This document shows, piece after piece, positions 373 through 32,124 of a stretch of 36,739 nucleotides of DNA. The notes under the pieces were generated by a model. The model searched no databases and was not told where the DNA came from. It was given only the letters and a program-made list of their open reading frames with translations. The position numbers and the translations under genes are program-made. The stretch is from the NCBI GenBank assembly GCA_002452635.1, contig DKEU01000237.1:1-36739 (forward strand), read 5' to 3'. This DNA comes from Desulfovibrionaceae bacterium UBA6814. GTDB taxonomy: Bacteria > Desulfobacterota > Desulfovibrionia > Desulfovibrionales > Desulfovibrionaceae. How positions within the stretch are numbered: the first letter of the stretch is position 1; every line of letters starts with the position of its first letter.

Positions 373-1923
373 GTGCCCAGCCTGCACCATGCGACGGACC
401 GCCACGTCACCATCGATCGCCGCCCCGGCCACTACCTGAGCTTCCCGGACGTGGCGCTCACCCGCGACGGCCGGCTCCTGTGCGCCTACCAGCAGTCCGA
501 CGTGCACGTGGCCACCCGGCGCGCCCTGCTCCTGGCCGAGAGCCCGGACCTGGGCGCCACCTGGTCCGCGCCCCGGTACCTCAATTCCACGGCCGCGCAC
601 TGCCCCCGGATCACCGTGCTGGAAGACGGCGAGGCGCTCATCATAGACGGCAGCCTCTACCGGTCCCTGGACCACGGCGCGACCTTCGCCGCCGCGCCCC
701 TGATCGGATTCACCCACGACATGCCGGACCGCATCATCCACCTGGGCGGGGACCGGTTCTACACCACCGGCCACACCCACCGCGGAACCATCCCCCAGCC
801 CTTTATCCGCCAAGCCCCAGCCGAGCAGATGGGCTACCTGTCCGAGAACCGCGGAGGTGCCTGGACCCCGTTCTCGATCCTGGCCTGCGAGCGCAACCTG
901 GTGCTTTGCGAGGCATCGGTCATCCGGATGCCCGACGGCCGGCTGCTCGCCCTGCTGCGCGAGAACAGCGGGGCGTTCGAGCCCATGTACCGGGTGGAGA
1001 GTTCCGACCTGGGCCGCACCTGGAGCGCCCCTCTGCCTACTCCGCTCATCGGCCACCGGCCCTGCCTGGGCCTGACCTCGGCAGGCAAGCTCCTGGTCAC
1101 CTACCGGAACGTGGGACCGGACGGCGGAACCGCGGCCTGGCTGGGAGACCCGGATGAGCTGAAGAATTTCGCGGTGCACGGCCTGGCCCGGGACCCGGGC
1201 AATCCGCAGCTCACGGCCAAGGGCCTGGTCATCGCCACCAGGCGGGGTTTCCCCGGGCCGCAGCGGCCGGACGGCGACGCTGTGATCTACTCCTTGCGCC
1301 CCATAACCGACCTGGACCGGGCCACCGCCGAACTCACGGTGCGGGTCAAGGTCGGGGCCGGCGGAGAGAACGCCTGCGCGGTGCGCCTGGGCTGCTGGTG
1401 GCGCATCCGGCCCGACCGCCTGGTGGCGGACGTGGCCCAGCCCCCGGACATCCCCCTGGCTCCGCGCCGGTTCCACGACCTTCGCTTCACATACTCGGCC
1501 GGAACCGTGACCGTACACGTGGACAACGAGCGGCGGGCCAAGGTACGGGTGGAGCAGACCGCCATGGCGCGCCGCATCCTCCTGGGCAACGCCCCGGGCA
1601 AGGACGGCCAGGAGGGACGCAGCACCTGGACCCATATCACCCTCAAGATACGCGAACCGCGCCAGGGCCGCACCTACGCCTGGTCCTGGGCCCACACCCA
1701 GGGCCTGCCCGACGCCTGGGCGCGGGCCAACGTGCTGGAGCTGGCCAACGGCTGCTTCGCCAACCCCGGGGATTTCGGCTACTCGGGCTGGGTGGAGCTA
1801 CCCGACGGGCGCTTCTTCTGCGCCTACCACCACGCCGAGGGGACGGACCCCGGCTATGCCGAGGGCCGCTCCGCGCACATCAGGGGAACATGGTTCACTG
1901 CCGACGACTTCTCCTCTGCCTAG
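373..1923 (+). CDS. BNR/sialidase-like beta-propeller protein with an inserted jelly-roll (LamG/concanavalin-like) segment
   Basis: 516-codon ORF starting at GTG 373. It has Asp-box-like motifs SPDLGATWS, SLDHGATF and SSDLGRTWS. The central stretch FHDLRFTYSAGTVTVHVDNERRAKV looks like a lectin-fold insert. Codon usage matches the host. The start codon is not certain. Confidence 0.7.
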   Translation: MPSLHHATDRHVTIDRRPGHYLSFPDVALTRDGRLLCAYQQSDVHVATRRALLLAESPDLGATWSAPRYLNSTAAHCPRITVLEDGEALIIDGSLYRSLDHGATFAAAPLIGFTHDMPDRIIHLGGDRFYTTGHTHRGTIPQPFIRQAPAEQMGYLSENRGGAWTPFSILACERNLVLCEASVIRMPDGRLLALLRENSGAFEPMYRVESSDLGRTWSAPLPTPLIGHRPCLGLTSAGKLLVTYRNVGPDGGTAAWLGDPDELKNFAVHGLARDPGNPQLTAKGLVIATRRGFPGPQRPDGDAVIYSLRPITDLDRATAELTVRVKVGAGGENACAVRLGCWWRIRPDRLVADVAQPPDIPLAPRRFHDLRFTYSAGTVTVHVDNERRAKVRVEQTAMARRILLGNAPGKDGQEGRSTWTHITLKIREPRQGRTYAWSWAHTQGLPDAWARANVLELANGCFANPGDFGYSGWVELPDGRFFCAYHHAEGTDPGYAEGRSAHIRGTWFTADDFSSA

Positions 1924-2315
1924 GCCTGCTGGCCCTCTGGGCCCTCCCGGCCTCCCCGGCCCTGGCCAACGGCGCGGCCCTGGCCCACGCCGCCCGGGAA
2001 GGCGAGGAACAGGTCCAGGTGCTCCTGCCCACCGAGGCCTACGAGGCCCCGGCCATCGAGGTCCTGGGCGGGCGCACGCCCCGGGTGGTGGTGGACTTCA
2101 GCGGCATCGCGGCCTGGGACGGGCCGGATTTCCTGGAGGTGGGCTCGCCCCTGGTGCGCCGGGTGCGGGCCTGGCTGCACGGCGACGAGAAGCGCCTGCG
2201 GGTGGTCCTGGACCTGGCCGAGGACCCCGCGCGGCTGCTGGTGACCCATACCTACGAGCCCGCCCCGGGCGGGGTGCGCGCCGTGCTCATCCTGCTCCCG
2301 GTGGGACCCCGCTGA
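1890..2315 (+). CDS. Secreted AMIN-domain protein
   Basis: ATG 1890 is in frame with the 1398-2315 ORF. The signal peptide is MVHCRRLLLCLGLLALWALPASPALA. The AMIN-like pattern is PRVVVDFSG ... VRRVRAWLH ... LRVVLDL. It overlaps the upstream gene by 34 nt. Confidence 0.55.
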   Translation: MVHCRRLLLCLGLLALWALPASPALANGAALAHAAREGEEQVQVLLPTEAYEAPAIEVLGGRTPRVVVDFSGIAAWDGPDFLEVGSPLVRRVRAWLHGDEKRLRVVLDLAEDPARLLVTHTYEPAPGGVRAVLILLPVGPR

Positions 2316-2384
2316 CGCCCTTTACCCGCGCCCGGATTTCAGGTACGCCCCTGCCTCTCCCATCGTCTTCCTGCGAGTTTCATT

Positions 2385-2966
2385 ATGCACAGCATTTGCG
2401 TCTTCCTCGGCTCCAATCCCGGCTTTGACCCGCGCTTTGCCCAGGCCGCCCAGGACATGGGCCGCGAACTGGCCCGGCGCGGCCTGACCCTGGTCTACGG
2501 CGGCTCCAACGTGGGGCTCATGGGCCTGTTGGCCGACACCGTGCTGCAGGCCGGGGGCACGGCCATCGGGGTCATCCCCGCGGCGCTGCGCGACAAGGAG
2601 ATCGCCCACGCCGGGCTCACCGAGCTGCACGTGGTGGACTCCATGCACCAGCGCAAGGCGCTCATGGCCGAGCTGTCCGACGGCTTCGCGGCCCTGCCCG
2701 GGGGCATGGGCACCCTGGAGGAGCTGTGCGAGGTGCTCACCTGGGGCCAGCTCGGATTCCACGCCAAGCCCTGCGGGGTGCTGAACGTGAACGGCTACTG
2801 GCAGGACCTGGCCCGGTTCCTGGAGACCATGGTGCAGAACGGGTTCCTGCACCCGTCGCACCGGGACATGCTCCTGGCCGCGGACACCCCGGCCGGGCTC
2901 CTGGACGCCTTTGCCGCCTACGTCCCGCCCCGGGCCAAGAAATGGCTCTCGGCCAAGGAACTGTAG
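2385..2966 (+). CDS. LOG-family protein (cytokinin riboside 5'-monophosphate phosphoribohydrolase / nucleotide nucleosidase type)
   Basis: 193 aa. It has the hallmark motifs LVYGGSNVGLMG and PGGMGTLEEL (PGGxGTxxE). The stop is TAG 2964-2966. Confidence 0.9.
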   Translation: MHSICVFLGSNPGFDPRFAQAAQDMGRELARRGLTLVYGGSNVGLMGLLADTVLQAGGTAIGVIPAALRDKEIAHAGLTELHVVDSMHQRKALMAELSDGFAALPGGMGTLEELCEVLTWGQLGFHAKPCGVLNVNGYWQDLARFLETMVQNGFLHPSHRDMLLAADTPAGLLDAFAAYVPPRAKKWLSAKEL

Positions 2967-2972
2967 GCGCCG

Positions 2973-3000
2973 TTGACAATTTCCCGCTGCGGCATAGCAT
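2973..3000 (+). promoter_or_regulatory. Sigma70-type promoter candidate upstream of the phospholipase-C-like gene
   Basis: A perfect -35 TTGACA (2973-2978) is followed by a 16-nt spacer and a -10-like TAGCAT (2995-3000). It lies 30 nt upstream of ATG 3030. Confidence 0.4.
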
Positions 3001-3029
3001 GTAAGAACGGGTCACCCGGCCACACGCCC

Positions 3030-3971
3030 ATGCGCATGATACTCTTCGCCCTGGCGGCGCTCTTCGCGGTCATCCTGCTGCCGGCCACCGACGCCCTGGC
3101 TTGGGGTCCGGGAGTGCACCTGGCGGTCGGGGATTACCTGCTGGGCAACCTGGACCTGCTGCCCGAGATGGCCGCCCGGATCCTGGCCGCGGACCCCCGG
3201 GGCTTCCTGTACGGCGCCCTGTCCCCGGACATCTTCCTGGGCAAGGGCTGCCGGATGAAGCCCGCGCACAGCCACAACTGGGCCACGGCCCGGGCGGTGC
3301 ACGACCAGGCCGACACCCTGCACCTGGCGGCCCACGCCCTGGGCTACCTCACCCACCTGGCCGCGGACGTGGTGGCGCACAACTACTACGTGCCCAACCT
3401 GCTGGCCTCGGTGCCGGTGGGCGGCCGGCTGCCCCACGTGTACCTGGAGATGCAGGCCGACGCCTGGGTGGACTGGGACGCGTCCTTTGCCCGGCGGCTC
3501 CTGTCCCGGGGCCCGGAGCCCGCGGACTGGTCCATGGTCAAGGCCACGGGCAAGAACCGCTCCTTGTTCCTGCTGCGCAAGGAGCTGTTCAGCCGCAGCT
3601 TCCACCTCTGGGAATCGCCCCTGTCCGCGCGCTCCCTGCGCCTGGCCGAACGCCGCCTGCCCCTGCTCGGCAACCGCGAGCTCATGCACAGCATGTTCGA
3701 CCTGGCCCTGGACCTGGCCACCCACGTGCTCCAGGACCCGGAACACTCCCCGGTGCTGGACTTCGACCCCATCGGCAGCCGCAACCTGCGCCGCGCCGGC
3801 CGGCTCTCCCGCTCCCTGCGCCGGGCCTGGCGGCGCGACCAGGAGCTGGCCTTCCCGGTGGCCCCCATGCTCCTGGAGCTGCACGAGTCCATGCGCGATG
3901 CGGACCACAAGCGGCCCTACCCGTTCCTGGCCACCCCGGAACAGACGGGGACAGAGGCCGTGCTCTCGTGA
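3030..3971 (+). CDS. Secreted zinc-dependent phospholipase C family protein
   Basis: ATG 3030 is in frame with the 2973 ORF. The signal peptide MRMILFALAALFAVILLPATDALA is followed by WGPGVH. A mature N-terminal Trp plus His is the zinc-ligand arrangement of the Zn-PLC fold. Additional motifs are HSHNW and YLTHLAADVVAHNYY. Confidence 0.65.
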   Translation: MRMILFALAALFAVILLPATDALAWGPGVHLAVGDYLLGNLDLLPEMAARILAADPRGFLYGALSPDIFLGKGCRMKPAHSHNWATARAVHDQADTLHLAAHALGYLTHLAADVVAHNYYVPNLLASVPVGGRLPHVYLEMQADAWVDWDASFARRLLSRGPEPADWSMVKATGKNRSLFLLRKELFSRSFHLWESPLSARSLRLAERRLPLLGNRELMHSMFDLALDLATHVLQDPEHSPVLDFDPIGSRNLRRAGRLSRSLRRAWRRDQELAFPVAPMLLELHESMRDADHKRPYPFLATPEQTGTEAVLS

Positions 3972-4462
3972 ACCAGGCCCGGCGGACGGCCCGCTACCTG
4001 CGGGCCACGCCCCTGCCCCATGTCGCGGCCGGCCTGTGCCTGGCCGCGTGCCTCGGCCTGGCCGCCCTGGCCCTGCGCCTCGCCCCCTCCCACCCGTTGG
4101 AGTCTGCGGCCCTGGCCGGCCTGGCCGCAGTCTGGCTGGGCCTGGGCCTGGTGGCCCTGGCCGACGGCCTGGCCCGCTTCCGGGAGTTCGTGCGCCTGCG
4201 CCGGATGCTCGCGCGCTACGGGTTCCGGCCCCGCATCCTGCGCCCGGCCGCGGGCTCGCGCTGCCAGCGCGACGCGGCCTTGGCCGCGGCAACCGAGGCC
4301 GGATGCGCAGCCGAGGCCCGGGCCTATTTCCGCAGCCTGGGCTACACCCCGCTCCACCTGGTCCCGGACCGGGTGGCCGCCGCGCCGCAACTGTTGCTCT
4401 CCCCGGCCTTCGTGGCCGAGACCTTCCTCCCGCGCCGGCGCAGCTCCCGCCGCACCGGCTGA
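3968..4462 (+). CDS. Hypothetical membrane protein (two predicted TM helices)
   Basis: GTG 3968 overlaps the upstream stop (GTGA). Hydrophobic stretches AAGLCLAACLGLAALAL and LAGLAAVWLGLGLVALA are present. It sits in frame within the 3101-4462 ORF. I recognise no family. Confidence 0.45.
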   Translation: MNQARRTARYLRATPLPHVAAGLCLAACLGLAALALRLAPSHPLESAALAGLAAVWLGLGLVALADGLARFREFVRLRRMLARYGFRPRILRPAAGSRCQRDAALAAATEAGCAAEARAYFRSLGYTPLHLVPDRVAAAPQLLLSPAFVAETFLPRRRSSRRTG

Positions 4463-4487
4463 GCCGCCCCGGGTCCCAGGACACGCC

Positions 4488-4940
4488 GTGCACCTCTACG
4501 CCGACGCCGACGCCCTGCCCACGCCCATCAAGGAGATACTCTTCCGCGCGGCCCAGCGCCTGCGCATGCGGCTGACCCTGGTGGCCAACAAGACCCTGGC
4601 CGTGCCCGAGTCCGAGTTCATCGACGCCGTCCGGGTGGGCCAGGGCTTCGACGTGGTGGATGCGGTGATCGCGGAGCGCGTGGCCCCGGGCGACCTGGTG
4701 GTCACCCAGGACATCCCCCTGGCCGCCCAGGTCATCGCCAAGGACGCCCACGCCCTGAGCCCCCGGGGCGAGGTGTTCAGCAAGGACAACATCCAGGGCC
4801 GCCTGGCCATGCGCAACCTGCTCTCGGAACTGCGCGACGGCGGCGTGGTGACCGGGGGCCCCGCGCCCCTGAGCCGACGGGATATCGAGGGGTTCGCCAA
4901 CCAGTTCAACCAGTTGGTGAGCCGGCTCCGCAACGCGTGA
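4488..4940 (+). CDS. yaiI: YaiI/YqxD family protein (UPF0178/DUF188)
   Basis: The GTG 4488 start gives 150 aa beginning VHLYADADALP, the typical UPF0178 N-terminus (xIWVDADACP). The length fits the family. Confidence 0.75.
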   Translation: MHLYADADALPTPIKEILFRAAQRLRMRLTLVANKTLAVPESEFIDAVRVGQGFDVVDAVIAERVAPGDLVVTQDIPLAAQVIAKDAHALSPRGEVFSKDNIQGRLAMRNLLSELRDGGVVTGGPAPLSRRDIEGFANQFNQLVSRLRNA

Positions 4941-19714: not shown

Positions 19715-20155
19715 ATGCAGGCGGCTGAAGCGACCCTGGGCCGGGTGTTCGTGCTGCGGCTGGGCGACGGGGATCGGGTTCCCGGCTGCATCGAGGAGTT
19801 CGCCCAGGACAAGGGCGTGCTGCGGGGCTTCTGCCTGCTCCTGGGCGGGGTGGGCGGCGGCAAGGTGGTGGTGGGCCCCGAGGACGGGGACGCCGCGCGC
19901 ATCACGCCCATGGTGGCGGCCCTGGCCGGGGTGCACGAGATCGCGGCCGTGGGCACCCTCTTCCCTGACGAATCAGGGACCCCCAGGCTGCACATGCACG
20001 CGGCCCTGGGCCGCGGCGGCGCGCCGGTGGTGGGCTGCGTGCGCCAGGGCGTGAACATCTGGCGGCTGGGCGAGGTCGTCCTGGTGGAGCTCCTGGGCTC
20101 CATGCGCCGCGCCGTTGACCCGGCCTTCGGCTTCGAGGTGCTGAAGGTGGAGTGA
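19715..20155 (+). CDS. PPC-domain (DUF296) protein
   Basis: ATG 19715 is preceded by GAGGGAGG. The 146-aa product contains RVFVLRLGDGDRVPGCIEEFAQDKGV ... HEIAAVGTLFPDESG.PRLHMHAALG, which fits the PPC/DUF296 pattern. Confidence 0.7.
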   Translation: MQAAEATLGRVFVLRLGDGDRVPGCIEEFAQDKGVLRGFCLLLGGVGGGKVVVGPEDGDAARITPMVAALAGVHEIAAVGTLFPDESGTPRLHMHAALGRGGAPVVGCVRQGVNIWRLGEVVLVELLGSMRRAVDPAFGFEVLKVE

Positions 20156-20394
20156 TGCAGTTAGCGAAGAATCGAACCTACACCCTGGCCGAGGTCTTCC
20201 CGGATCTGCACCAGGGCAGCGCCATCCGTGGCCTGCGCTACCGCGAGGGCCTGACCCAGAAGCGTCTGGCCGAGATGGTTGGCATCCACCCCAGCCATAT
20301 CTCCGAAATGGAGCGCGGCAAGCGGCCCATCGGCAAGGCCATGGCCAAGCGCCTGGCCAAGGCCCTGGGCACGTCGTACAAGGTGTTTCTCTAG
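20155..20394 (+). CDS. XRE-family helix-turn-helix transcriptional regulator (79 aa)
   Basis: ATG 20155 overlaps the PPC gene stop (TGATG); GTG 20152 is an alternative start. The HTH is LTQKRLAEMVGIHPSHISEMERGKRPIGKAMAKRLAKAL. Confidence 0.8.
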   Translation: MQLAKNRTYTLAEVFPDLHQGSAIRGLRYREGLTQKRLAEMVGIHPSHISEMERGKRPIGKAMAKRLAKALGTSYKVFL

Positions 20395-21359
20395 CCCTTT
20401 CCCTTTCCTTTCTTCCCGGCCTGGGCCCCGGGATGGGCCTTGTCGTAGGCCTCCACGAGCTTCTGGATGGAGAGGTGGGTGTAGCGCTGGGTGGTGGTGA
20501 GGCGGGAGTGGCCGAGGAGCTCCTGCACGCTGCGCAGGTCCGCGCCGGCCTCCAGCAGGTGGGTGGCGAAGGTGTGGCGCAGCACGTGGGGGTGCACGCC
20601 GGCGGGCAGGCCGGCCGACTTGGCCATCTGCTCCAGGATGCGGGCCGCCACCCGGCGGTTCAGGCGGCCGCCCCGGTTGCCCACGAACAGGGCCTCCTCG
20701 TCGGGCAAGGGCTCGAACGCGTCGCGGCAGGACAGGTACTCCCGGATGCGCTTCTTCCCCGCCTCGGTGAGGGGCACGGTGCGCTCCTTGGAGCCCTTGC
20801 CCAGCACCCGCACCCAGCCCCCGGCCAGGTCCACGTCGTCCACGTTCAGGCCCGTGGCCTCGGACACCCGCAGGCCCGAGCCGTAGAGCAGCTCGGCCAG
20901 GGCCATGTCGCGCAGGCCCTCGGGGTCCTCCAGGCGGCCGGCCTCCATGAGGGCCAGGGCCTGGTCCACGTTGAGCGCGTCCGGGTGGCGCTTGTCCGCC
21001 CTGGGGTTGGCCACCCCGGCCACCGGGTTCTCCCGGGCCTGGCCGGTACGCAGCAGGTGCTTGAACAGGCCGCGCAGGGCCGAGAGCTTGCGCCCGGCCG
21101 AGGACTTGCCCACCCCGCGGCGGTGCAGCTCGGCCAGGAAGCCGCGCACCTCCACCCGGCCCACGGCCGCGGGCTCGGCCAGGGACTTGCCCCGGGTGGC
21201 CAGGAACTCCTCGAACTGGGCCAGGTCCCCGGCATAGGCCGCCAGGGTGGCCGGGCTGTAGCCCTTCTCCACCGCCAGCCGGGCCACCCAGGCCTCGGCG
21301 GCCGCGGGCAGCGGGGGCAGGTCGGGCAGGCTGTCCTGCGGGGCCGCCTTGCGCCTCAC
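20391..21359 (-). CDS. xerC: Tyrosine recombinase, XerC/XerD family
   Basis: GTG 21359 overlaps the histidine kinase stop (GTGA). The 322-aa product carries LAELLYGSGLRVSE, VLGKGSKERTVPL, HVLRHTFATHLLEAGADLRSVQELLGHSRLTTTQRYTH (the catalytic R..HxxR..Y set). It has an unusual Lys/Gly-rich C-terminal tail. The choice between XerC and XerD is not resolved. Confidence 0.85.
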   Translation of the reverse strand: MRRKAAPQDSLPDLPPLPAAAEAWVARLAVEKGYSPATLAAYAGDLAQFEEFLATRGKSLAEPAAVGRVEVRGFLAELHRRGVGKSSAGRKLSALRGLFKHLLRTGQARENPVAGVANPRADKRHPDALNVDQALALMEAGRLEDPEGLRDMALAELLYGSGLRVSEATGLNVDDVDLAGGWVRVLGKGSKERTVPLTEAGKKRIREYLSCRDAFEPLPDEEALFVGNRGGRLNRRVAARILEQMAKSAGLPAGVHPHVLRHTFATHLLEAGADLRSVQELLGHSRLTTTQRYTHLSIQKLVEAYDKAHPGAQAGKKGKGKG

Positions 21360-26419: not shown

Positions 26420-27358
26420 ATGCAACCCGATTTCGGCTCCCTGGTCCTCTTGGTAGCCTTGTCCCTGCAACTGCTCCTGGAGCTCTCCGGCCTGGGCTCC
26501 CTGGCCGTGGCCTTCCTGGCCGAGGGCCTGGCCGAAACCCGCAAACAGGTGTTCCTACGCAAGCTGGCCCAGCAGGTCTCGACCATGAGCCTGTGGCTGC
26601 TCGGCTACACCCTGGTCTCGGGCGGCGGCATGCTCTGGCTCGTCCACAGCAGCCAGCCGGACAGCTTGAAGCCCTGGATAGCCACGCCCGTCCTGGCCCT
26701 GCCCCTGGCCGTGGCCTTCGGCCTGGCCGTGCTCCTGGCCGTGCTCTACCGCGCCACCTGGAAGCCCTTGCGGGAGCGCAAGACCCTGCACCGCTCCATC
26801 GGACTCCTGGCCGCCCTGTCCGGCTTCCTCGGCCTGGCCCTGGCCGTGGCCGCCAAGATAACCCTGGCCGACCCCCTCCTGTACGGGTGGTACTACCTGC
26901 CCTCCACCGTACAGGGCCTGTACCTGTACGCCCCGGCGGCCACCTTCTGGCCCATGCTGGCCCACGTCCTGCTCTGGGCCGTGGCCGGCGGCGCGGGCCT
27001 GGGCCTGGTCTACCTGCTCATGCGCCGCAACCGGGACGACTTCGGCCGGGACTACTACACCTATGCGGTGCGCTGGCTGGCGCGCTGCGCCGCCGTGCCC
27101 GCCCTGCTCCAACTGGGCGCGGCCGCGGCGCTCATCGCGCCGGCCTGGGGCGCGCTGCCCCAGGAGATGAAGAGCACCGCCACCGGCCTGGCCGCAGGCG
27201 GGGCCATGGCCGCGGTGCTGGCCGCGATTCTCCTGTGCAACGTCTCCCGCGCCGAAGCCCCCCTGCGCTCCAAGCCCGCCATCCTGGGCGCCGTCGCGCT
27301 CCTGGCCGCCGCCCTGGCCGGCCCCACCGGCGTCATCATGATGCTGCTCCTCAAATAG
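26420..27358 (+). CDS. Polytopic membrane protein of unknown function
   Basis: ATG 26420 is preceded by GGAGA. The 312-aa product has about 8 hydrophobic segments. The region upstream in the same ORF (from 26228) is Arg/Pro-rich and unlikely to be coding. Confidence 0.55.
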   Translation: MQPDFGSLVLLVALSLQLLLELSGLGSLAVAFLAEGLAETRKQVFLRKLAQQVSTMSLWLLGYTLVSGGGMLWLVHSSQPDSLKPWIATPVLALPLAVAFGLAVLLAVLYRATWKPLRERKTLHRSIGLLAALSGFLGLALAVAAKITLADPLLYGWYYLPSTVQGLYLYAPAATFWPMLAHVLLWAVAGGAGLGLVYLLMRRNRDDFGRDYYTYAVRWLARCAAVPALLQLGAAAALIAPAWGALPQEMKSTATGLAAGGAMAAVLAAILLCNVSRAEAPLRSKPAILGAVALLAAALAGPTGVIMMLLLK

Positions 27359-27380
27359 CCGCCCGGCATGCGCCAAGACA

Positions 27381-27407
27381 AAGCGGGGGAGCCGGAAGGC
27401 TCCCCCG
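27381..27407 (+). repeat. Left copy of the 27-nt direct repeat (GC-rich hairpin) bracketing the 1.8-kb insert
   Basis: AAGCGGGGGAGCCGGAAGGCTCCCCCG is identical to 29195-29221. It forms a 10-bp stem (27384-27393 / 27398-27407) with a GGAA loop. It lies 23 nt after the membrane-protein stop codon. Confidence 0.9.
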
Positions 27408-27471
27408 AGCCCCCTTGTGTGGGGGTGTTCAGTCCTGGGGACTCCTGATATAGGGACCTTGCGAGGCCCCC

Positions 27472-28074
27472 ATGGACTACCGGAAGGAACTGGACGAACT
27501 CCTGCGGGTGGAAGACCCCTTGCGGCGCAAGGCCCGCTTCATGGGCATCCTGTCCCGGGAAGTCCTGCGGGAATCGGGCAAGACCCCGGTCATCGTGGGC
27601 GGATTCGCGGTGGAGGTGTTCACGGTCGGGCGCTACACCTCCCTGGACGTGGATGTGAAGGGGCCCAAGGAGAGCATCACCCGCATCCTGGGGGAGATGG
27701 GCTTCCGGCACGACGGCACGCACTTTGTCCACGAGGGCCTGGATATCTTCATCCAATGGCTGGGCGAGGGACCGAGTCCCCTCAGCGAGAGCCTGGAGCG
27801 CCTGGTCAACGTGCCCGTGGACCACGCCGCCGGCCTCTTCATCCGCCTCATCGGCTTCGAGGACCTCATCATCGACCGCCTCAACCAGGCCAAGCACTGG
27901 AAGGTGGCGGACGCCGGGATGTGGGCTGCTCGCATCCTGGAGGCGGCCCTCACCGGCGAGGACGTGTCTCTGGATTTCGACTACCTGAGACAGCGCGCCG
28001 AGGCGGAAGACGTGATGGACGTGCTAGACGACCTGCTCAGTGACGTGAACATCATCCCGGAACCCGGAGCCTGA
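27472..28074 (+). CDS. Minimal nucleotidyltransferase-fold protein (DUF2204/DUF6036/AbiEii-like; family not resolved)
   Basis: ATG 27472 is preceded by GAGG. In the 200-aa product, VIVGGFAVEVFTVGRYTSLDVDVKG approximates the Pol-beta-type NTase signature hG[GS]-x9-13-Dh[DE]h (here 14 residues separate GG from the first Asp). A later acidic segment is IRLIGFEDLIIDRL. Confidence 0.5.
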   Translation: MDYRKELDELLRVEDPLRRKARFMGILSREVLRESGKTPVIVGGFAVEVFTVGRYTSLDVDVKGPKESITRILGEMGFRHDGTHFVHEGLDIFIQWLGEGPSPLSESLERLVNVPVDHAAGLFIRLIGFEDLIIDRLNQAKHWKVADAGMWAARILEAALTGEDVSLDFDYLRQRAEAEDVMDVLDDLLSDVNIIPEPGA

Positions 28075-28076
28075 CC

Positions 28077-28298
28077 ATGCGCACCATCCCCCTGGAAGAC
28101 CTCCTGGCCGCGGGCCGCAAGGCCACGGCAGAAGCCTACCTCGCCGGCCGCATGTCCGAGCGCGCCCGCCTGCGCACCGCCCCCCGCGACCCCGAAAAAC
28201 TCGCCGCCCTGGCCCGCTATGTGAGCGACTACATTCGAAAGCATCCGATCCGCAGGATGGAGAATGGGATGATCTGGGTGCCGGGACTCTCAGAATAA
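28077..28298 (+). CDS. Small hypothetical protein (73 aa) coupled to the NTase-fold gene
   Basis: ATG 28077 lies 2 nt after the upstream TGA. The product looks helical (MRTIPLEDLLAAGRKATAEAYLAGRMSERARL...). I recognise no family. The stop is TAA 28296-28298. Confidence 0.45.
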   Translation: MRTIPLEDLLAAGRKATAEAYLAGRMSERARLRTAPRDPEKLAALARYVSDYIRKHPIRRMENGMIWVPGLSE

Positions 28299-28331
28299 AG
28301 CCATCCGTGACTATATTTCTTGGAGGACAAT

Positions 28332-29177
28332 ATGCCTTACAATGCAACTGTATACAAAGTAATGATTGCTTCTCCAAACGATGTAGCGCATGAAAGATCC
28401 ATCATTAGAGATGTTCTAAATGAGTGGAACACTGTAAACTCTGATTCAAGAAAAATCGTTTTACTTCCAATCGGATGGGAAACGCATACTTCCCCAGAAA
28501 TGGGAGAGAACCCCCAAGAAATAATTAACAAACAAATTGCTAAAGACTGTGACCTTCTTGTCGGGGTGTTTTGGACAAGAATTGGGACGCCAACTCAATC
28601 ATATTTGAGTGGGACTGTAGAAGAGATCGAAGAGCATATAGCAAAAGACAAACCCACAATGTTATATTTCTCTAGTGCTCCCATCCATCCGGATATCGTT
28701 GATCAATCTCAATATAATGAGTTAAAAAAGTTTAAGGAGGCTTGCAGCACACGAGGAATATACGAAACTTATTCCGACTTATCAGAATTCAAGAGTAAAT
28801 TCTATAGACAGCTACAAATCAAACTAAACAAAGATAAATTTTTTACAACTAACAACCAAGGAGAAACTCGCCCTTTTGAACTTGTTGAATCCAAGCCGGT
28901 AGAAATACCACACTTATCAGAAGAAGCTAAAGTATTATTAGTTGAGACAGCAAATGATTCCCATGGACATATTTTACGCTTACACCATTTAGGTGGCGTT
29001 ACGATACAAACTGGAAGCAAGACTTTTGTAAATGACAGTAATCCAAGAAATCGTGCGACATGGGAGGGAGCTATTAAAGAGCTTGAAGAAAATGGACTAA
29101 TCGAACCGCTCAATCCAAAGAGAGAAATATTTCAAATAACACGAAGAGGATATGACATTGCAGAATTACTAGGGTAA
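28332..29177 (+). CDS. AT-rich orphan gene: DUF4062/TIR-like (nucleoside-deoxyribosyltransferase-like) Rossmannoid N-domain fused to a winged-helix-like C-domain
   Basis: GGAGG (28322-28326) plus a 5-nt spacer precedes ATG 28332; the track start TTG 28320 is less likely. The product is 281 aa. The N-domain pattern is YKVMIASPNDVAHER ... DCDLLVGVFWTRIGTPT ... SGTVEEIEEHI ... KPTMLYFS. The C-terminus is ATWEGAIKELEENGLIEPL...FQITRRGYDIAELL. Sampled lines give 25-37% G+C against about 70% in the flanks. An intrinsic terminator follows. Confidence 0.8.
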   Translation: MPYNATVYKVMIASPNDVAHERSIIRDVLNEWNTVNSDSRKIVLLPIGWETHTSPEMGENPQEIINKQIAKDCDLLVGVFWTRIGTPTQSYLSGTVEEIEEHIAKDKPTMLYFSSAPIHPDIVDQSQYNELKKFKEACSTRGIYETYSDLSEFKSKFYRQLQIKLNKDKFFTTNNQGETRPFELVESKPVEIPHLSEEAKVLLVETANDSHGHILRLHHLGGVTIQTGSKTFVNDSNPRNRATWEGAIKELEENGLIEPLNPKREIFQITRRGYDIAELLG

Positions 29178-29194
29178 GATAAGAAAGCAAAACC

Positions 29195-29221
29195 AAGCGG
29201 GGGAGCCGGAAGGCTCCCCCG
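29195..29221 (+). repeat. Right copy of the 27-nt direct repeat
   Basis: AAGCGGGGGAGCCGGAAGGCTCCCCCG is identical to 27381-27407. Confidence 0.9.
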
Positions 29222-29229
29222 CTCTTTTT
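29197..29229. terminator. Bidirectional intrinsic terminator between the AT-rich gene (+) and cheA (-)
   Basis: GCGGGGGAGCC (29197-29207) and GGCTCCCCCGC (29212-29222) form an 11-bp stem with a GGAA loop. It is followed by TCTTTTT and preceded by an A-rich tract (AAGAAAGCAAAACCAA), which supplies a U-tract on the minus strand. Confidence 0.8.
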
Positions 29230-29247
29230 GTCTCGTTGCCCCGGGGC

Positions 29248-32025
29248 CTACGCCCGGGTGGTGGCCATCTTGTAGACCTCGTGGGGGTCGAGGATGAGGA
29301 CCACCGAGCCGTCGCCCATGATGGTGGCGCCGGACAGGCCGCGGCAGTCGCCCAGGTAGGAGCCCAGGGGCTTGATCACGATCTCCTGGCGCTCCAGCAG
29401 GCGGTCCACCACCAGGCCCAGGCGGCGCTGGTTGTCCTGGATCACCACCACCGGCAATATCTCCCGCTCGGTCTGGTTGCGGGGCAGCTCCAGAAGCTCG
29501 GCCAGCTCCACGATGCCCAGCACCTCGCCGCGCAGGGTCACGGCGTTGCGGCCGTTGACCTCGGTGAGCAGGTCCGCCTCGATCTTGGTGGTCTCGGACA
29601 CCGCGTCCAGGGGGATGGCGTACATCTGCTCGTCCACCATGATCATGAGCGCGTCGATGATGGCCAGGGTGAGCGGCAGGGACAGGATGAACTTGGTGCC
29701 CTTGCCCAGGTGGGTCTGCACGTCCACCGTGCCCTTGAGGTTCTTGATGTTGGTGCGCACCACGTCCATGCCCACGCCGCGGCCCGAGATGTCGGTGATC
29801 TTCTCCGCGGCGGAGAAGCCCGGGGCGAAGATGAGGTCCACGGCCGCGGCGTCGTCCAGGGCGTTGGCCTCCTCCTGGGTGACGATGCCCTTCTTGACGC
29901 CCACCTCGCGCATCTTCCTGGGGTCGATGCCCCGGCCGTCGTCCTCCACCTCGATGGCCACCGAGTTGCCGCGGTGGTAGGCGCGCAGCCACACCCGGCC
30001 CACCTCGGGCTTGCCCGCGGCCACCCGCTCGTCGTTGGGCTCCAGGCCGTGGTCCATGGAGTTGCGCATGAGGTGGACCAGGGGGTCGCCGATGACCTCG
30101 ATGACGCTCTTGTCCAGCTCGGTCTCCTCGCCCTCGGTGATGAGCTCCACCTTCTTGCCGCTCTTGCGGGACAGGTCGCGCACCAGGCGGGGGAAGCGGG
30201 TGAACACCGTGGACACCGGCACCATGCGCACCTTCATGATGGTGTCCTGCAGGTCGTCGGAGATGCGGGCCATGGCGTAGGTGGTCTCGGTGAGGTCCGT
30301 GGCGGTGCGCGCCAGGTCCATCTTTTCCGTGCGCTCCTCCATGCTCTTGGCGATCATGGAGAAACGGTTGCGGTTGATGATGAGCTCGCCGATGAGGTTC
30401 ATGAGGTGGTCGAGCTTCTCGTGGTCCACCCGGATGGTGGACGAGGTGGCGGCGGGTTTGCCCTTCTTGGCCGCGGCTCCCGCGGCGGGCGCGGCGGCCC
30501 GGCCGGGCCTGGCCGCCGGGGCGTCCTCCTCGGCGGACTCGGTGGGCTCGGCGGGCTCGGGCTCCTCGGCCGGCTCGGGCTCGGGCTCGGGAGCCGGGGC
30601 CGCCGGGGCGGGCGCAGGGGCAGGCTTGGGAGCAGGAGCGGGAGCCGGGGCAGGAGCCGCGGCCGGAGCCGGTGCGGCGGCCGCCTGGCTGATCTGCCGC
30701 TCCACCATGTCCTTGAGGATGGAGCACTCCTGCTTGAGGATGTCGAGCATGAGCTCGAAGTCCAGGTCCGACTTGCGGGCCTGGTCCACCAGGCCGGCGG
30801 TGCGCTCGGCCGTGGTCTTGATCTCGGCGAAGCCCATGTACTGGGCGGAATTCTGGATGCCCACCAGGGAGCGGAACAGGCCGTCCACGTAGTCGCGCTG
30901 CCCGGCGTCCCTGGCCAGCTCGGCCAGGGCCAGGTCGATGTTGGCGAGCTGTTGGCCCACGGTGGACTCGAACACCGCCAGGTCGTCGTCGTCCACGCCC
31001 CCGGCCCCGGCCGGGGACTCGGCCGCGGGAGCCGCAGCCGCGGCGGGCTCGGGTTCGGGGGCCGGGACGGGCTCTTCGCCCGCGGCCTGCAGCCGGGCCA
31101 CCACCGCGCGGGTGTCCACCGGGGTCACCTCGTGCTTCTCCCGGTCCACGCCCTCCAGCAGGCCCGCGATGCCGTCCACCGCGGCCAGGAGCACGTCGGT
31201 GAGGCCCTGGGTGGCGGCGATCTCGCCCTTGCGCACCCGGTTGAGCAGTGTCTCGGCCTCGTGGGTCAGGGAGTTGAGCTCCGCATAGCCCACGATGCCG
31301 CTGTTGCCCTTCAGGTTGTGGAAATAGCGGAAGATGTCGTTGACCAGCCCCTCCCGGCCCGGGTCCTTCTCCATGTCCACCAGGGCCGCGGACAGGGACT
31401 CCACGATCTCCTTGGCCTCGTCCAGGAAGTCGTCCAGGTGCTCCTTGGCCACCACCTGCAAGCCGTAGGTGGTGGGGGTGAAGGGCGGCAGGCTGGCCGC
31501 CGGGGCAGCGGGAGCCGGGGCAGCGGGAGTCGGGGCGGGCGCGGGGGCCGGGGCCGGCGCGGGGGCCGGGGCCGGGGCCGCCGGGGCGGGCTTGGGTTTG
31601 GGCTTGGGCTTGGCCGCGGCGGGCGGGGTGCCGCCGGCCAGCAGCGCGTCCAGGGTGGCGATGAGGGACGCGGTGTCCACCTCGCCTTCGCTGCCCTCGG
31701 TTTCCAGGTTCTCGATCATCTGGCGCAGGGCGTCGGTGGAGGACAGGATCACGTCCATGATCTCGGAGGTGACCGCCATGTTGCCCTTGCGCAGTTCGTC
31801 CAGGATGTTCTCCGAGCGGTGGGCCAGGACGTTCATCTTGTTCAGGCCGAGAAAGCCCGAAGCTCCCTTCAGGGAGTGCATGGGCCGGAAGATGTCGTTC
31901 AGGAGATCGAGGTTCTCCGGGCTCTGCTCCAGTTCGAGCAGGTTGGGCTCGATGGTCTCCAGATGTTCCTTGGCTTCGACGATGAAGTCGGCGAAGATTT
32001 CCGGATCCATGAACTCTTGGCTCAT
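29248..32025 (-). CDS. cheA: Chemotaxis histidine kinase CheA with three Hpt-like modules
   Basis: ATG 32025 is preceded by GAGG plus a 7-nt spacer; the track start GTG 32031 is less likely. Residue numbers below follow the track numbering. The modules are:
- Hpt1: FRPMHSLKGASG
- Hpt2: FRYFHNLKGNSG
- degenerate Hpt3: FRSLVGIQNSAQ
- dimerisation segment: STIRVDHEKLDHLMNLIGEL
- HATPase boxes: HLMRNSMDHG, DDGRGID, GRGVGMDVV
- C-terminal CheW-like domain. Confidence 0.9.
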   Translation of the reverse strand: MSQEFMDPEIFADFIVEAKEHLETIEPNLLELEQSPENLDLLNDIFRPMHSLKGASGFLGLNKMNVLAHRSENILDELRKGNMAVTSEIMDVILSSTDALRQMIENLETEGSEGEVDTASLIATLDALLAGGTPPAAAKPKPKPKPAPAAPAPAPAPAPAPAPAPTPAAPAPAAPAASLPPFTPTTYGLQVVAKEHLDDFLDEAKEIVESLSAALVDMEKDPGREGLVNDIFRYFHNLKGNSGIVGYAELNSLTHEAETLLNRVRKGEIAATQGLTDVLLAAVDGIAGLLEGVDREKHEVTPVDTRAVVARLQAAGEEPVPAPEPEPAAAAAPAAESPAGAGGVDDDDLAVFESTVGQQLANIDLALAELARDAGQRDYVDGLFRSLVGIQNSAQYMGFAEIKTTAERTAGLVDQARKSDLDFELMLDILKQECSILKDMVERQISQAAAAPAPAAAPAPAPAPAPKPAPAPAPAAPAPEPEPEPAEEPEPAEPTESAEEDAPAARPGRAAAPAAGAAAKKGKPAATSSTIRVDHEKLDHLMNLIGELIINRNRFSMIAKSMEERTEKMDLARTATDLTETTYAMARISDDLQDTIMKVRMVPVSTVFTRFPRLVRDLSRKSGKKVELITEGEETELDKSVIEVIGDPLVHLMRNSMDHGLEPNDERVAAGKPEVGRVWLRAYHRGNSVAIEVEDDGRGIDPRKMREVGVKKGIVTQEEANALDDAAAVDLIFAPGFSAAEKITDISGRGVGMDVVRTNIKNLKGTVDVQTHLGKGTKFILSLPLTLAIIDALMIMVDEQMYAIPLDAVSETTKIEADLLTEVNGRNAVTLRGEVLGIVELAELLELPRNQTEREILPVVVIQDNQRRLGLVVDRLLERQEIVIKPLGSYLGDCRGLSGATIMGDGSVVLILDPHEVYKMATTRA
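30442..30687 (-). repeat. Low-complexity Pro/Ala/Glu-codon tract (CheA inter-domain linker)
   Basis: It encodes AAAPAPAAAPAPAPAPAPKPAPAPAPAAPAPEPEPEPAEEPEPAEP.... Degenerate short GC-rich codon repeats here generate spurious ORFs in other frames. Confidence 0.7.
31474..31632 (-). repeat. Low-complexity Pro/Ala/Lys-codon tract (CheA linker between Hpt1 and Hpt2)
   Basis: It encodes GGTPPAAAKPKPKPKPAPAAPAPAPAPAPAPAPAPTPAAPAPAAPAAS. Confidence 0.7.
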
Positions 32026-32124
32026 TGACACACCTCAGGGCGCGGGCAGTCCCGACGCCGGCTAGCGCAGTTTGCCTTGAAACAAGGCGCAGAGCTAAAA
32101 TACTATTCTGTTATTTCAGCAAAC

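Follow-up and report, generated by a model that had tools for sequence, protein, structure and literature searches.

Introduction

Chromosomal hotspots for accessory and defence genes mostly carry no recognisable integrase, and the entry of DNA into them is largely unexplained. The closest described counterparts are minimal mobile elements (Saunders & Snyder 2002, as cited in PMC1797815), which, on the definition quoted in that source, rely on homologous exchange in the flanking genes. Here we analysed a 36,739-nt contig of Desulfovibrionaceae bacterium UBA6814 (DKEU01000237.1, assembly GCA_002452635.1; the whole contig is called the window below), in which a segment of three genes, named g1, g2 and g3, lies between the convergent genes for a membrane protein and CheA and is bracketed by two directly repeated copies of a terminator hairpin. 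The locus has the character of a minimal mobile element or chromosomal hotspot, with conserved flanks, alternative cassettes or none between them, and no mobility genes, and its cargo is likewise enriched in genes of defence and toxin-antitoxin type. In contrast to those elements, the entry point is one palindromic terminator, which is duplicated around the cargo, and, in a sparse sample of short fragments, no homologous exchange in the flanking genes was detected. We favour, with some reserve, the view that the segment is an old accessory-gene cassette in a strain-variable hotspot at a shared bidirectional terminator, and that host-mediated insertion duplicates this terminator.

Direct repeats that bracket an insert, with one copy at empty sites, are also familiar from transposon target duplications and from attL and attR. 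Unlike the fixed short length or fixed core of those repeats, the repeat at this locus measures 28-42 nt, depending on the event. Integron attC cassettes and Acinetobacter pdif modules are alike in another respect, being recombinase-less modules that are bounded by short palindromes and occur in varied combinations from strain to strain. The palindrome described here differs from theirs in having the perfect 12-bp GC stem, 4-nt loop and T-tract of a canonical intrinsic terminator and no XerC/D-binding sequence; in addition, the cargo is of mixed orientation, the duplication can run beyond the palindrome, and there is no integron integrase. Sites of the dif type are AT-rich with an 11-6-11 arrangement, and attC sites are typically ~55-140 nt long.

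Two copies of a terminator hairpin

The 27-mer AAGCGGGGGAGCCGGAAGGCTCCCCCG occurs in exactly two copies in the window, both on the plus strand (27381-27407 and 29195-29221), as the original prediction, made from the sequence of the window alone, had described. No further match was found in the window at up to three mismatches, and none appeared in 100 dinucleotide-preserving shuffles, so that no copy is expected by chance. The 27-mer is the longest exact direct repeat of the 36.7-kb window, the runners-up being 21-nt repeats in low-complexity coding sequence. Addition of the three preceding bases gives 30 nt with one mismatch (ACA vs ACC), a figure also given in the prediction, and repeat search and local alignment extended the match further, to 34 nt with two mismatches (27374-27407 vs 29188-29221). 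The structure recurs at 99.99-100% identity in ENA ERZ27315029 and Logan SRR5324013, two contigs that come from other samples, and is therefore no assembly artefact.

Folding agreed with the prediction that both copies are GC-rich hairpins with a GGAA loop (window positions 27394-27397 and 29208-29211); for 61-nt stretches we obtained folding energies of -39.2 kcal/mol (z-score -4.6) for copy 1 and -32.5 kcal/mol (z-score -5.2) for copy 2. Copy 1 has a 10-bp stem (CGGGGGAGCC-GGAA-GGCTCCCCCG, 27384-27407) and has kept the ancestral A-rich left flank, which is homologous to the left flank of empty sites in relatives (see below), and lost the T-tract on the right. It has a T-tail on the minus strand only, with no T-run following the stem on the plus strand, and scores as a terminator on the minus strand only. 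The stem of copy 2 spans 12-13 bp, and a T-tail is present on either strand; this copy is scored as a terminator in both directions and is predicted to be an intact bidirectional intrinsic (Rho-independent) terminator that serves g3 and cheA. Its flanks match those of the single hairpin at the empty sites of two relatives, L003 and L132.

The segment had been described as free of integrase, transposase and inverted terminal repeats. Searches of Pfam, NCBIfam, PHROGs and PADLOC gave no integrase or transposase match for the window cargo proteins, and no terminal inverted repeats were found besides the palindromic stems themselves. A transposon or insertion sequence was rejected on these two findings together with the variable length of the duplication, and an integrative element bounded by att repeats was rejected on the finding that none of the three open reading frames (ORFs) between the copies has a recombinase match. 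A scan of positions 27000-29600 against Rfam returned chance-level matches only.

Empty sites and other cargo in relatives

Junctions between the membrane gene and cheA were recovered from relatives by a hairpin scan of a genome collection, a metagenome scan combined with blastn, and contig look-ups. The junctions predicted from the window are ...CAAGACAAAGC-hairpin-GCTCTTTTTGTCTCG for an empty site and ...GCAAAACCAAGC-hairpin-GAGCCCCCTTGTG for a circle. The original prediction had proposed a search of related genomes for an empty site with a single hairpin, and such sites were found in five lineages: L003, which is the Thermodesulfobacteriota metagenome-assembled genome (MAG) MAG311, L131, L132 and L133/L134. 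At these sites a 72-75-nt spacer with one hairpin separates the membrane gene from cheA, and the hairpin is flanked by an A-tract on one side and by CTCTTTTTGTCTC (GCTCTTTTTGTCTC) on the other. The resulting layout of A-tract, 12-bp GC stem, 4-nt loop and T-tract resembles a bidirectional terminator; it is the structure that the prediction had reconstructed by joining the outer flanks of the two window copies. The empty sites are equivalent to products of precise loss.

Other relatives hold different DNA at the same place. The 700-kb contig Ga0209269_1000004 (L128/L129) has a 4.9-kb insert with genes for a GAF-sigma54 activator, a TM_HPP protein and a Prismane/Hcp hybrid-cluster protein, in mixed orientation, and L130 has a 1.1-kb insert of 38% GC with one 277-aa ORF to which no function could be assigned; in both, a hairpin stands at either end, in direct orientation. 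In L084 the insert measures ~8 kb and contains several ORFs with almost no family matches, two hairpin copies, and a different terminator on the cheA side. Family searches with the cargo of L084 and L130 gave no mobility or known defence matches except DUF4760. Between the same two genes we thus count five empty lineages and four cargo types, and the locus is a strain-variable insertion hotspot between convergent genes.

A block at positions 6900-8400 of L084 has a GC content of 24-30% within a contig of 53-75% GC and contains a 395-aa ORF without a family match, i.e., extremely foreign DNA at this same hotspot.

One duplication or several

Local alignment placed the duplicated stretch at 34 nt with two mismatches in the window, 42 nt with three in L128 and 28 nt with one in L130, where it coincides exactly with the 28-bp palindrome. 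In the right copy of L128, a left-flank stretch of 14 nt (CGCCAAAACCAAGC) matches the orthologous flank at the empty L132 site base for base, and the duplicated DNA is therefore local and not imported. The left copies of L128 and L130 keep GCT.TT of the ancestral T-tract, and the left copy of the window ends inside the stem. The T-tract bases of L128 and L130 thus exclude descent from a window-type duplication, so that the duplications of window type, of L128 and of L130, at least, are separate events. A base of the left flank (ACAAAGC vs ACCAAGC) was considered as a marker of left and right copies and dropped, as the left copy of L141 has the "right-type" base.

Hairpin copies in L084 have another setting. 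They lie at 1742-1763 and 3361-3382, each 3' of one of two tandem paralogous minus-strand genes (1794-3038 and 3413-4885), which encode signal-peptide proteins of 65% protein identity without a family match and whose 3' untranslated regions also align. The two hairpins have stayed identical while the paralogues diverged by 35%.

The age of the cassette can be judged from L136 and L137, which form the most distant subclade and have g1-g2 in this position. The membrane proteins of this subclade share ~68% identity with that of the window, and the membrane gene differs by 27% in nucleotides. Between the window and L136, nucleotide identity is 74% for the membrane gene, 86% for g1, 90% for g2, 75.5% for g3 and 92% for the 3' end of cheA. 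The corresponding synonymous divergence (dS) is 0.42-0.43 for g1, 0.36 for g2 and 0.45 for the membrane gene. The membrane gene of the window is separated from those of L128, L130, L132 and L003 by dS values of 0.19-0.25, below the cassette values between the window and L136, so that the cassette predates the splits from these four lineages, which have lost or replaced it. We rejected the idea that the cassette passed recently between the lineages of L136 and of the window, since dS of g1 and g2 is close to that of the membrane gene and the flanks show no mosaic tract: a sliding-window comparison, with sparse sampling and short fragments, revealed no visible L136-like tract in the flanking genes of the window. 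A later acquisition by the window lineage, from a donor of equal divergence that is not among the lineages sampled, is an alternative to vertical inheritance with repeated loss. The cassette, present and diverged in distant lineages, appears to be old and not an active mobile element, and we found no evidence for current mobility of the segment. For g3, dS between the window and L136 is ~2.2, far above the values for g1 and g2.

This age is also where the earlier account of the segment has to be revised. An insertion at the terminator with duplication of the site agrees with the empty sites and with the other cargo; the repeats, though, are not fresh, given that the cassette is old and that the left hairpin differs in L141. 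L141 is the nearest relative of the window (93.6% identity in the final 140 nt of the membrane gene) and has the same left junction (TGGGGGTGTTCAGTCC...). The left hairpin of L136 and L137 has decayed.

The suggestion that the insert is itself a mosaic, from two acquisitions or a cassette hotspot, fared well. GC content is 65.5% in g1-g2 and 37.6% in g3, against 70.5% for the whole window. In L137, g1-g2 is followed by unrelated GC-rich sequence and g3 is absent. The g3 of L136 (2071-2586, downstream to 2916) has a stop after 171 codons, with a downstream part ~80% identical to the window, which leaves a split gene or a pseudogene of recent origin as explanations. Without g3, g1-g2 homologues of 64% identity (196 + 73 aa) lie at the distal end of an element in L138 (198-7366), L139 and L140, which carries tyrosine integrase, HTH_17, HTH_36 and ERCC4 genes and abuts the 3' end of an apparent tRNA gene. 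The g3 family is widespread as a stand-alone gene. These findings indicate that the window cargo is a mosaic of an older g1-g2 and a separately added g3.

We considered whether the terminator could have been duplicated just once, in the clade ancestor, when g1-g2 arrived, with later replacement or loss of the cargo through homologous exchange between strains and deletion between the repeats, and with empty sites as deletion scars. The presence of g1-g2 in the most distant subclades (window/L141 and L136/L137), at dS values like those of the flanks, fits such a deep two-hairpin site, direct repeats of 28-42 nt permit precise deletion, and conserved flanks with variable cassettes and no mobility genes are the pattern of minimal mobile elements (PMC1797815). 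We nevertheless regard a single ancestral duplication as rather unlikely: the inner boundaries vary with the cargo, the left copies of L128 and L130 retain T-tract bases, no common cargo-derived remnants lie next to the hairpins, and the sliding-window comparison, sparsely sampled as it is, shows no L136-like tract in the window flanks.

No dispersed repeat, and no sign of a dedicated recombinase

A 25-mer of the hairpin was searched on both strands, and thus in both loop orientations, in 185,579 species genomes. It was found once in MAG311, at this locus, and otherwise in two unrelated MAGs, so that the REP-like dispersion against which the original prediction had proposed a genome-wide count is not seen. 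Viral contigs gave no match to the hairpin and its adjoining flanks, and hence no attP-like copy. A metagenome scan with a degenerate loop recovered the stem GCGGGGGAGCC/GGCTCCCCCGC with dozens of loops in >120 contigs (L008-L127), all of them unrelated except L084, L116, L118 and a short hairpin-only match in L019; the similarity of the unrelated matches to the window does not go beyond the hairpin. The 11-bp stem appears to be a common convergent solution for GC-rich terminators rather than a mobile repeat, and it is unusable alone as a marker. A dispersed repetitive extragenic palindromic (REP) or bacterial interspersed mosaic element, which would have tens to hundreds of intergenic copies per genome, was rejected, with one copy in MAG311 and two in the window, all at this locus.

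The only recombinase in the neighbourhood is encoded at 20391-21359 on the minus strand of the window, ~6 kb away. It is of XerC/XerD type (329 and 291 bits, respectively) and scores 139 bits as an integron integrase, against a cut-off of 265. Genomes with an empty site have this gene, as do those with an occupied one, and an integron or Xer hypothesis built on it was rejected, the gene being a conserved XerC/D-type core gene. Integron cassettes were likewise rejected. Such cassettes would lie, co-oriented, beside an integron integrase gene with attI and be bounded by imperfect palindromes with R''/L''-L'/R' boxes; here there is no integron integrase, the L128 cargo is of mixed orientation, and the stem is perfect over 10-12 bp, with a 4-nt loop and a total length of 28 nt. 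No GTTRRRY box was seen in the hairpin flanks.

Dedicated site-specific recombination at the 28-bp palindrome (AGCGGGGGAGCC-N4-GGCTCCCCCGCT) would nonetheless explain part of the pattern. The palindrome would act like lox, dif or attC for a recombinase encoded elsewhere, for example the Xer-type enzyme 6 kb upstream, and circular one-copy cassettes would integrate and excise, as integron cassettes or Acinetobacter pdif modules do. Inverted arms with an asymmetric spacer are what such a site would have; the copies are always directly oriented, three of the four occupied configurations have the same spacer in both copies (the exception being L130, with TACC vs TTCC), and the stem is strongly conserved across the clade. 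The duplication in L130 is exactly the palindrome; that in L128 runs beyond it, taking in the 14 nt of left flank shared with L132, and the left copy of the window ends within the stem. The cargo has no recombinase, as is the case for pdif modules (PMC6449649, PMC13141974). The palindrome itself, however, is unlike dif and far shorter than attC, without R and L boxes, and the nearby XerC/XerD-type gene, below the integron-integrase cut-off, does not follow the occupancy of the site. The divergence of the cassette is moreover of vertical type, not that of a recent spread, and no copy was found in viral contigs. Taken together, we consider a dedicated recombination site quite improbable.

Independent insertions of a self-spreading palindromic element, REP-like or akin to miniature inverted-repeat transposable elements, are the least credible source of the copies, for the 11-bp stem in >120 unrelated metagenome contigs comes with many loops and no common flanks, as expected of convergent GC-rich terminators, tandem duplication of gene and terminator accounts for the internal L084 copy beside a cargo gene, the hairpin is confined to this locus within the clade, and no REP-associated (RAYT) or other transposase gene was found.

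Why the two window copies are identical

A TTCC loop is found in L003, L131 and L132, in both copies of L128 and of L084, in the right copy of L130 and in the left copy of L141. Other loops occur in the left copy of L130 and in L133/L134, L136 and L142, the variants seen being TACC (L130), TGCC, TCAC and GAAA. The GGAA loop in both copies of the window is the exact reverse complement of TTCC. In L141 the left hairpin (165-190) has the TTCC loop together with a compensatory G:C to A:T change, from GGGGGAGCC/GGCTCCCCC to GGGGAAGCC/GGCTTCCCC. The stem is identical in 13 of the 15 copies across the clade, and this invariance indicates purifying selection on the terminator.

As the insertion is older than the split between the window and L141, both window copies must have gained the same derived loop after that split. 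The inversion of the spacer, common to two copies 1.8 kb apart, implies gene conversion between them or two parallel flips. One spacer inversion followed by gene conversion, which would have given both copies the same GGAA loop, is the simplest account. The 27-nt identity is on this evidence best attributed to purifying selection on the terminator stems together with gene conversion, and is no sign of a recent insertion. Perfect direct repeats around a cassette, in other words, need not mean that it was inserted recently.

Template switching at inverted repeats is known to produce inversion of a spacer and one-step compensatory changes in a stem (PMC8604942, PMC8794818), and both signatures are present at this hairpin, as the change from TTCC to its reverse complement GGAA and as the compensatory change in L141. 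The published cases, unlike ours, are local mutations within one hairpin (PMC8604942, PMC8794818), and their extension to the capture of kilobases of foreign DNA is an extrapolation.

How DNA may enter the terminator

If insertion is host-mediated, as we favour, the ancestral, empty state would have been the 72-75-nt spacer with its single terminator of A-tract, 12-bp GC stem, 4-nt loop and T-tract. DNA would have entered this palindrome several times independently within a narrow clade of Thermodesulfobacteriota, and most events would have left the insert flanked on each side by a 28-42-nt stretch that includes the whole hairpin. The two convergent genes would each keep a terminator and the cargo would be transcriptionally insulated. 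Because the cargo has no recombinase and the boundaries of the duplication vary, host-mediated illegitimate recombination at the palindrome is the most likely process. It could proceed by template switching during replication, with the hairpin copied again after synthesis on foreign DNA, or by staggered breaks flanking the hairpin that are filled in and then sealed by end joining; the GGAA vs TTCC loop and the compensatory stem change lend support to a mechanism of this kind. Selection may keep only those insertions that regenerate the terminator on both sides, and the direct repeats would make the cargo prone to precise loss, which would restore the single-hairpin site.

The integration of CRISPR spacers provides a lead for the second route, as there a palindromic repeat of ~28-37 bp is duplicated via staggered attacks on either side and fill-in. 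The likeness is limited to the duplication of a palindromic repeat; unlike a CRISPR array, this locus has no cas genes, holds kilobase cassettes and has only two repeat copies.

Several points weigh against host-mediated insertion as the origin of the duplicated terminators. Junction microhomologies, filler DNA and intermediates have not been demonstrated, and we infer the molecular mechanism. The second hairpin copy of L084 arose by tandem duplication of a gene with its terminator, and not every hairpin copy therefore stems from an insertion. The similarity beyond the hairpin is partly A-rich and of low complexity, and could in part be convergent because cheA needs a T-tract. The presence of g1-g2 in two distant subclades requires many independent losses or an early lateral transfer. 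Stems that are identical in 13 of 15 copies, next to a membrane gene that differs by up to 27% in nucleotides, would also be explained by recognition by a protein. Finally, the genome-wide evidence for a single copy comes from one MAG, MAG311, of unknown completeness.

Empty sites, three or more sites filled independently and one decayed site together make the locus a compact natural series, and what is unusual here is that the point of entry can be pinned to one terminator, duplicated in most events. If host-mediated insertion is correct, an insertion would automatically duplicate the terminator and give a self-insulating cassette that can later be lost precisely. As a tentative and at present doubtful generalisation, palindromic bidirectional terminators between convergent genes may be general sites of recombinase-independent gene capture or, in a stronger variant, the site of a trans-acting recombinase in an integron- or pdif-like system of Thermodesulfobacteriota. 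Were the pattern general, it would amount to a host-driven route of gene capture that preserves the insulation of convergent neighbours and has precise loss built in. It can be tested in pangenome data, where accessory segments between convergent genes would be flanked by duplicated terminators.

Genes inside and beside the segment

The coordinates of the segment and its neighbours are collected in Table 1.

Table 1. Repeat copies, cargo genes and flanking core genes in the window
Feature	Position	Strand	Description
Membrane-protein gene (left flanking core gene)	26420..27358	+	312-aa multi-pass membrane protein; ORF and gene call
Repeat copy 1	27374..27407	.	34 nt; perfect 27-mer at 27381-27407
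g1	27472..28074	+	200-aa nucleotidyltransferase-fold protein, MenT/ANT(2'')-like
g2	28077..28298	+	73-aa partner; start 2 nt past g1 stop
g3	28332..29177	+	281-aa AT-rich (37.6% GC) single-gene DUF4062 protein with C-terminal auxiliary region
Repeat copy 2	29188..29223	.	34-nt repeat 29188-29221 and full hairpin 29196-29223, then CTCTTTTTGTCTCG
cheA (right flanking core gene)	29248..32031	-	927 aa; three Hpt stretches, H-kinase_dim, HATPase_c, CheW

The product of g1 has a nucleotidyltransferase fold. Profile searches gave a weak match to DUF6036 and a match to phrog_13263, and an alignment of 12 homologues showed the residues of a GG...DxD motif (G43, G44, D59 and D61) to be invariant. The AlphaFold2 (AF2) model has a predicted local distance difference test (pLDDT) score of 89.6, and its Foldseek neighbours include 5uvd, MenT1 (8an5_B/8an4) and ANT(2'')-Ia, at E ~1e-3 and a TM-score of ~0.5, and also LnuA. 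Sequence searches with g1 and g3 against solved structures returned nothing significant. Wherever g1 was observed it is accompanied by g2, and the pairing of 200 or 196 aa with 73 aa is kept in L136, L137, L138-L140 and L141; g2 has no family match in Pfam, NCBIfam, PHROGs or PADLOC. This constant pairing suggests that g1-g2 is a toxin-antitoxin-like module of a MenT-like nucleotidyltransferase and a small partner. Systems of MenT/AbiEii type share with it the nucleotidyltransferase fold and GG...DxD motif, with MenT1 among the best structural neighbours, and a small, tightly coupled partner gene, and g1-g2 homologues lie on mobile elements elsewhere. They differ in that the structural likeness of g1 is modest (TM-score ~0.5, 14-16% identity) and that its partner g2 lies downstream and has no family assignment.

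The product of g3 matches Pfam DUF4062 over residues 9-100 (29.3 bits, cut-off 24.7) and PADLOC PDC-S60 at 1e-33, over the N-terminal 168 positions only. Its 2853 homologues are mostly ~280 aa long and come from many phyla and from plasmids, with a best non-self identity of 67%; the C-terminal region of ~110 aa has a faint winged-helix resemblance. DUF4062 has been described as a TIR-like NADase domain in the single-gene abortive-infection systems Swarozyc, Evangelion and Vulcan, which depend on an auxiliary region at the C terminus and on a catalytic glutamate near residue 97-98 (E97 in KpSwz, E98 in Vulcan; bioRxiv 10.64898/2026.05.01.722283, 10.64898/2026.06.25.731849, 10.64898/2026.09.04.749371). 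Like these DUF4062/NIR NADase systems, g3 is a single gene with an N-terminal DUF4062 followed by a C-terminal auxiliary region, and it has glutamates at residues 97-98 (E97-E98 in GTVEEIE), assigned by position in the translation and not by alignment to the published proteins. Unlike them, it has no sequence match to any solved structure, and its match to PDC-S60 is partial. We conclude that g3 is probably an abortive-infection anti-phage gene of the TIR-like NADase type.

Both flanking genes belong to the core genome. The membrane protein has no family match in Pfam or NCBIfam and belongs to a tiny family with ~10 relatives among 5.8 billion proteins. In cheA, the three Hpt stretches (30550-30700, 31020-31110 and 31480-31600, minus strand) are separated by long Ala/Pro-rich low-complexity linkers, which are the source of most other repeats in the window.

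Variation was also seen next to and away from the terminator. In L132 an FRG-domain gene (1877-2731, minus strand; PADLOC candidate PDC-S15, 1e-46) lies between a TPR gene and the membrane gene. No direct repeats were found around this insertion, and it says nothing on whether long duplications are a general mechanism. The window has another variable spot between convergent genes, at 20155-20394 (plus strand), where a 79-aa Xre/HigA-like helix-turn-helix gene stands between the PCC-domain gene (19715-20155) and the xerC/D-like gene (20391-21359), sharing one base or overlapping by a few bases with each neighbour. This small gene is missing in L130 and L131, where the PCC-domain and xerC/D-like genes overlap, and L128 has a different, 154-aa gene in its place.

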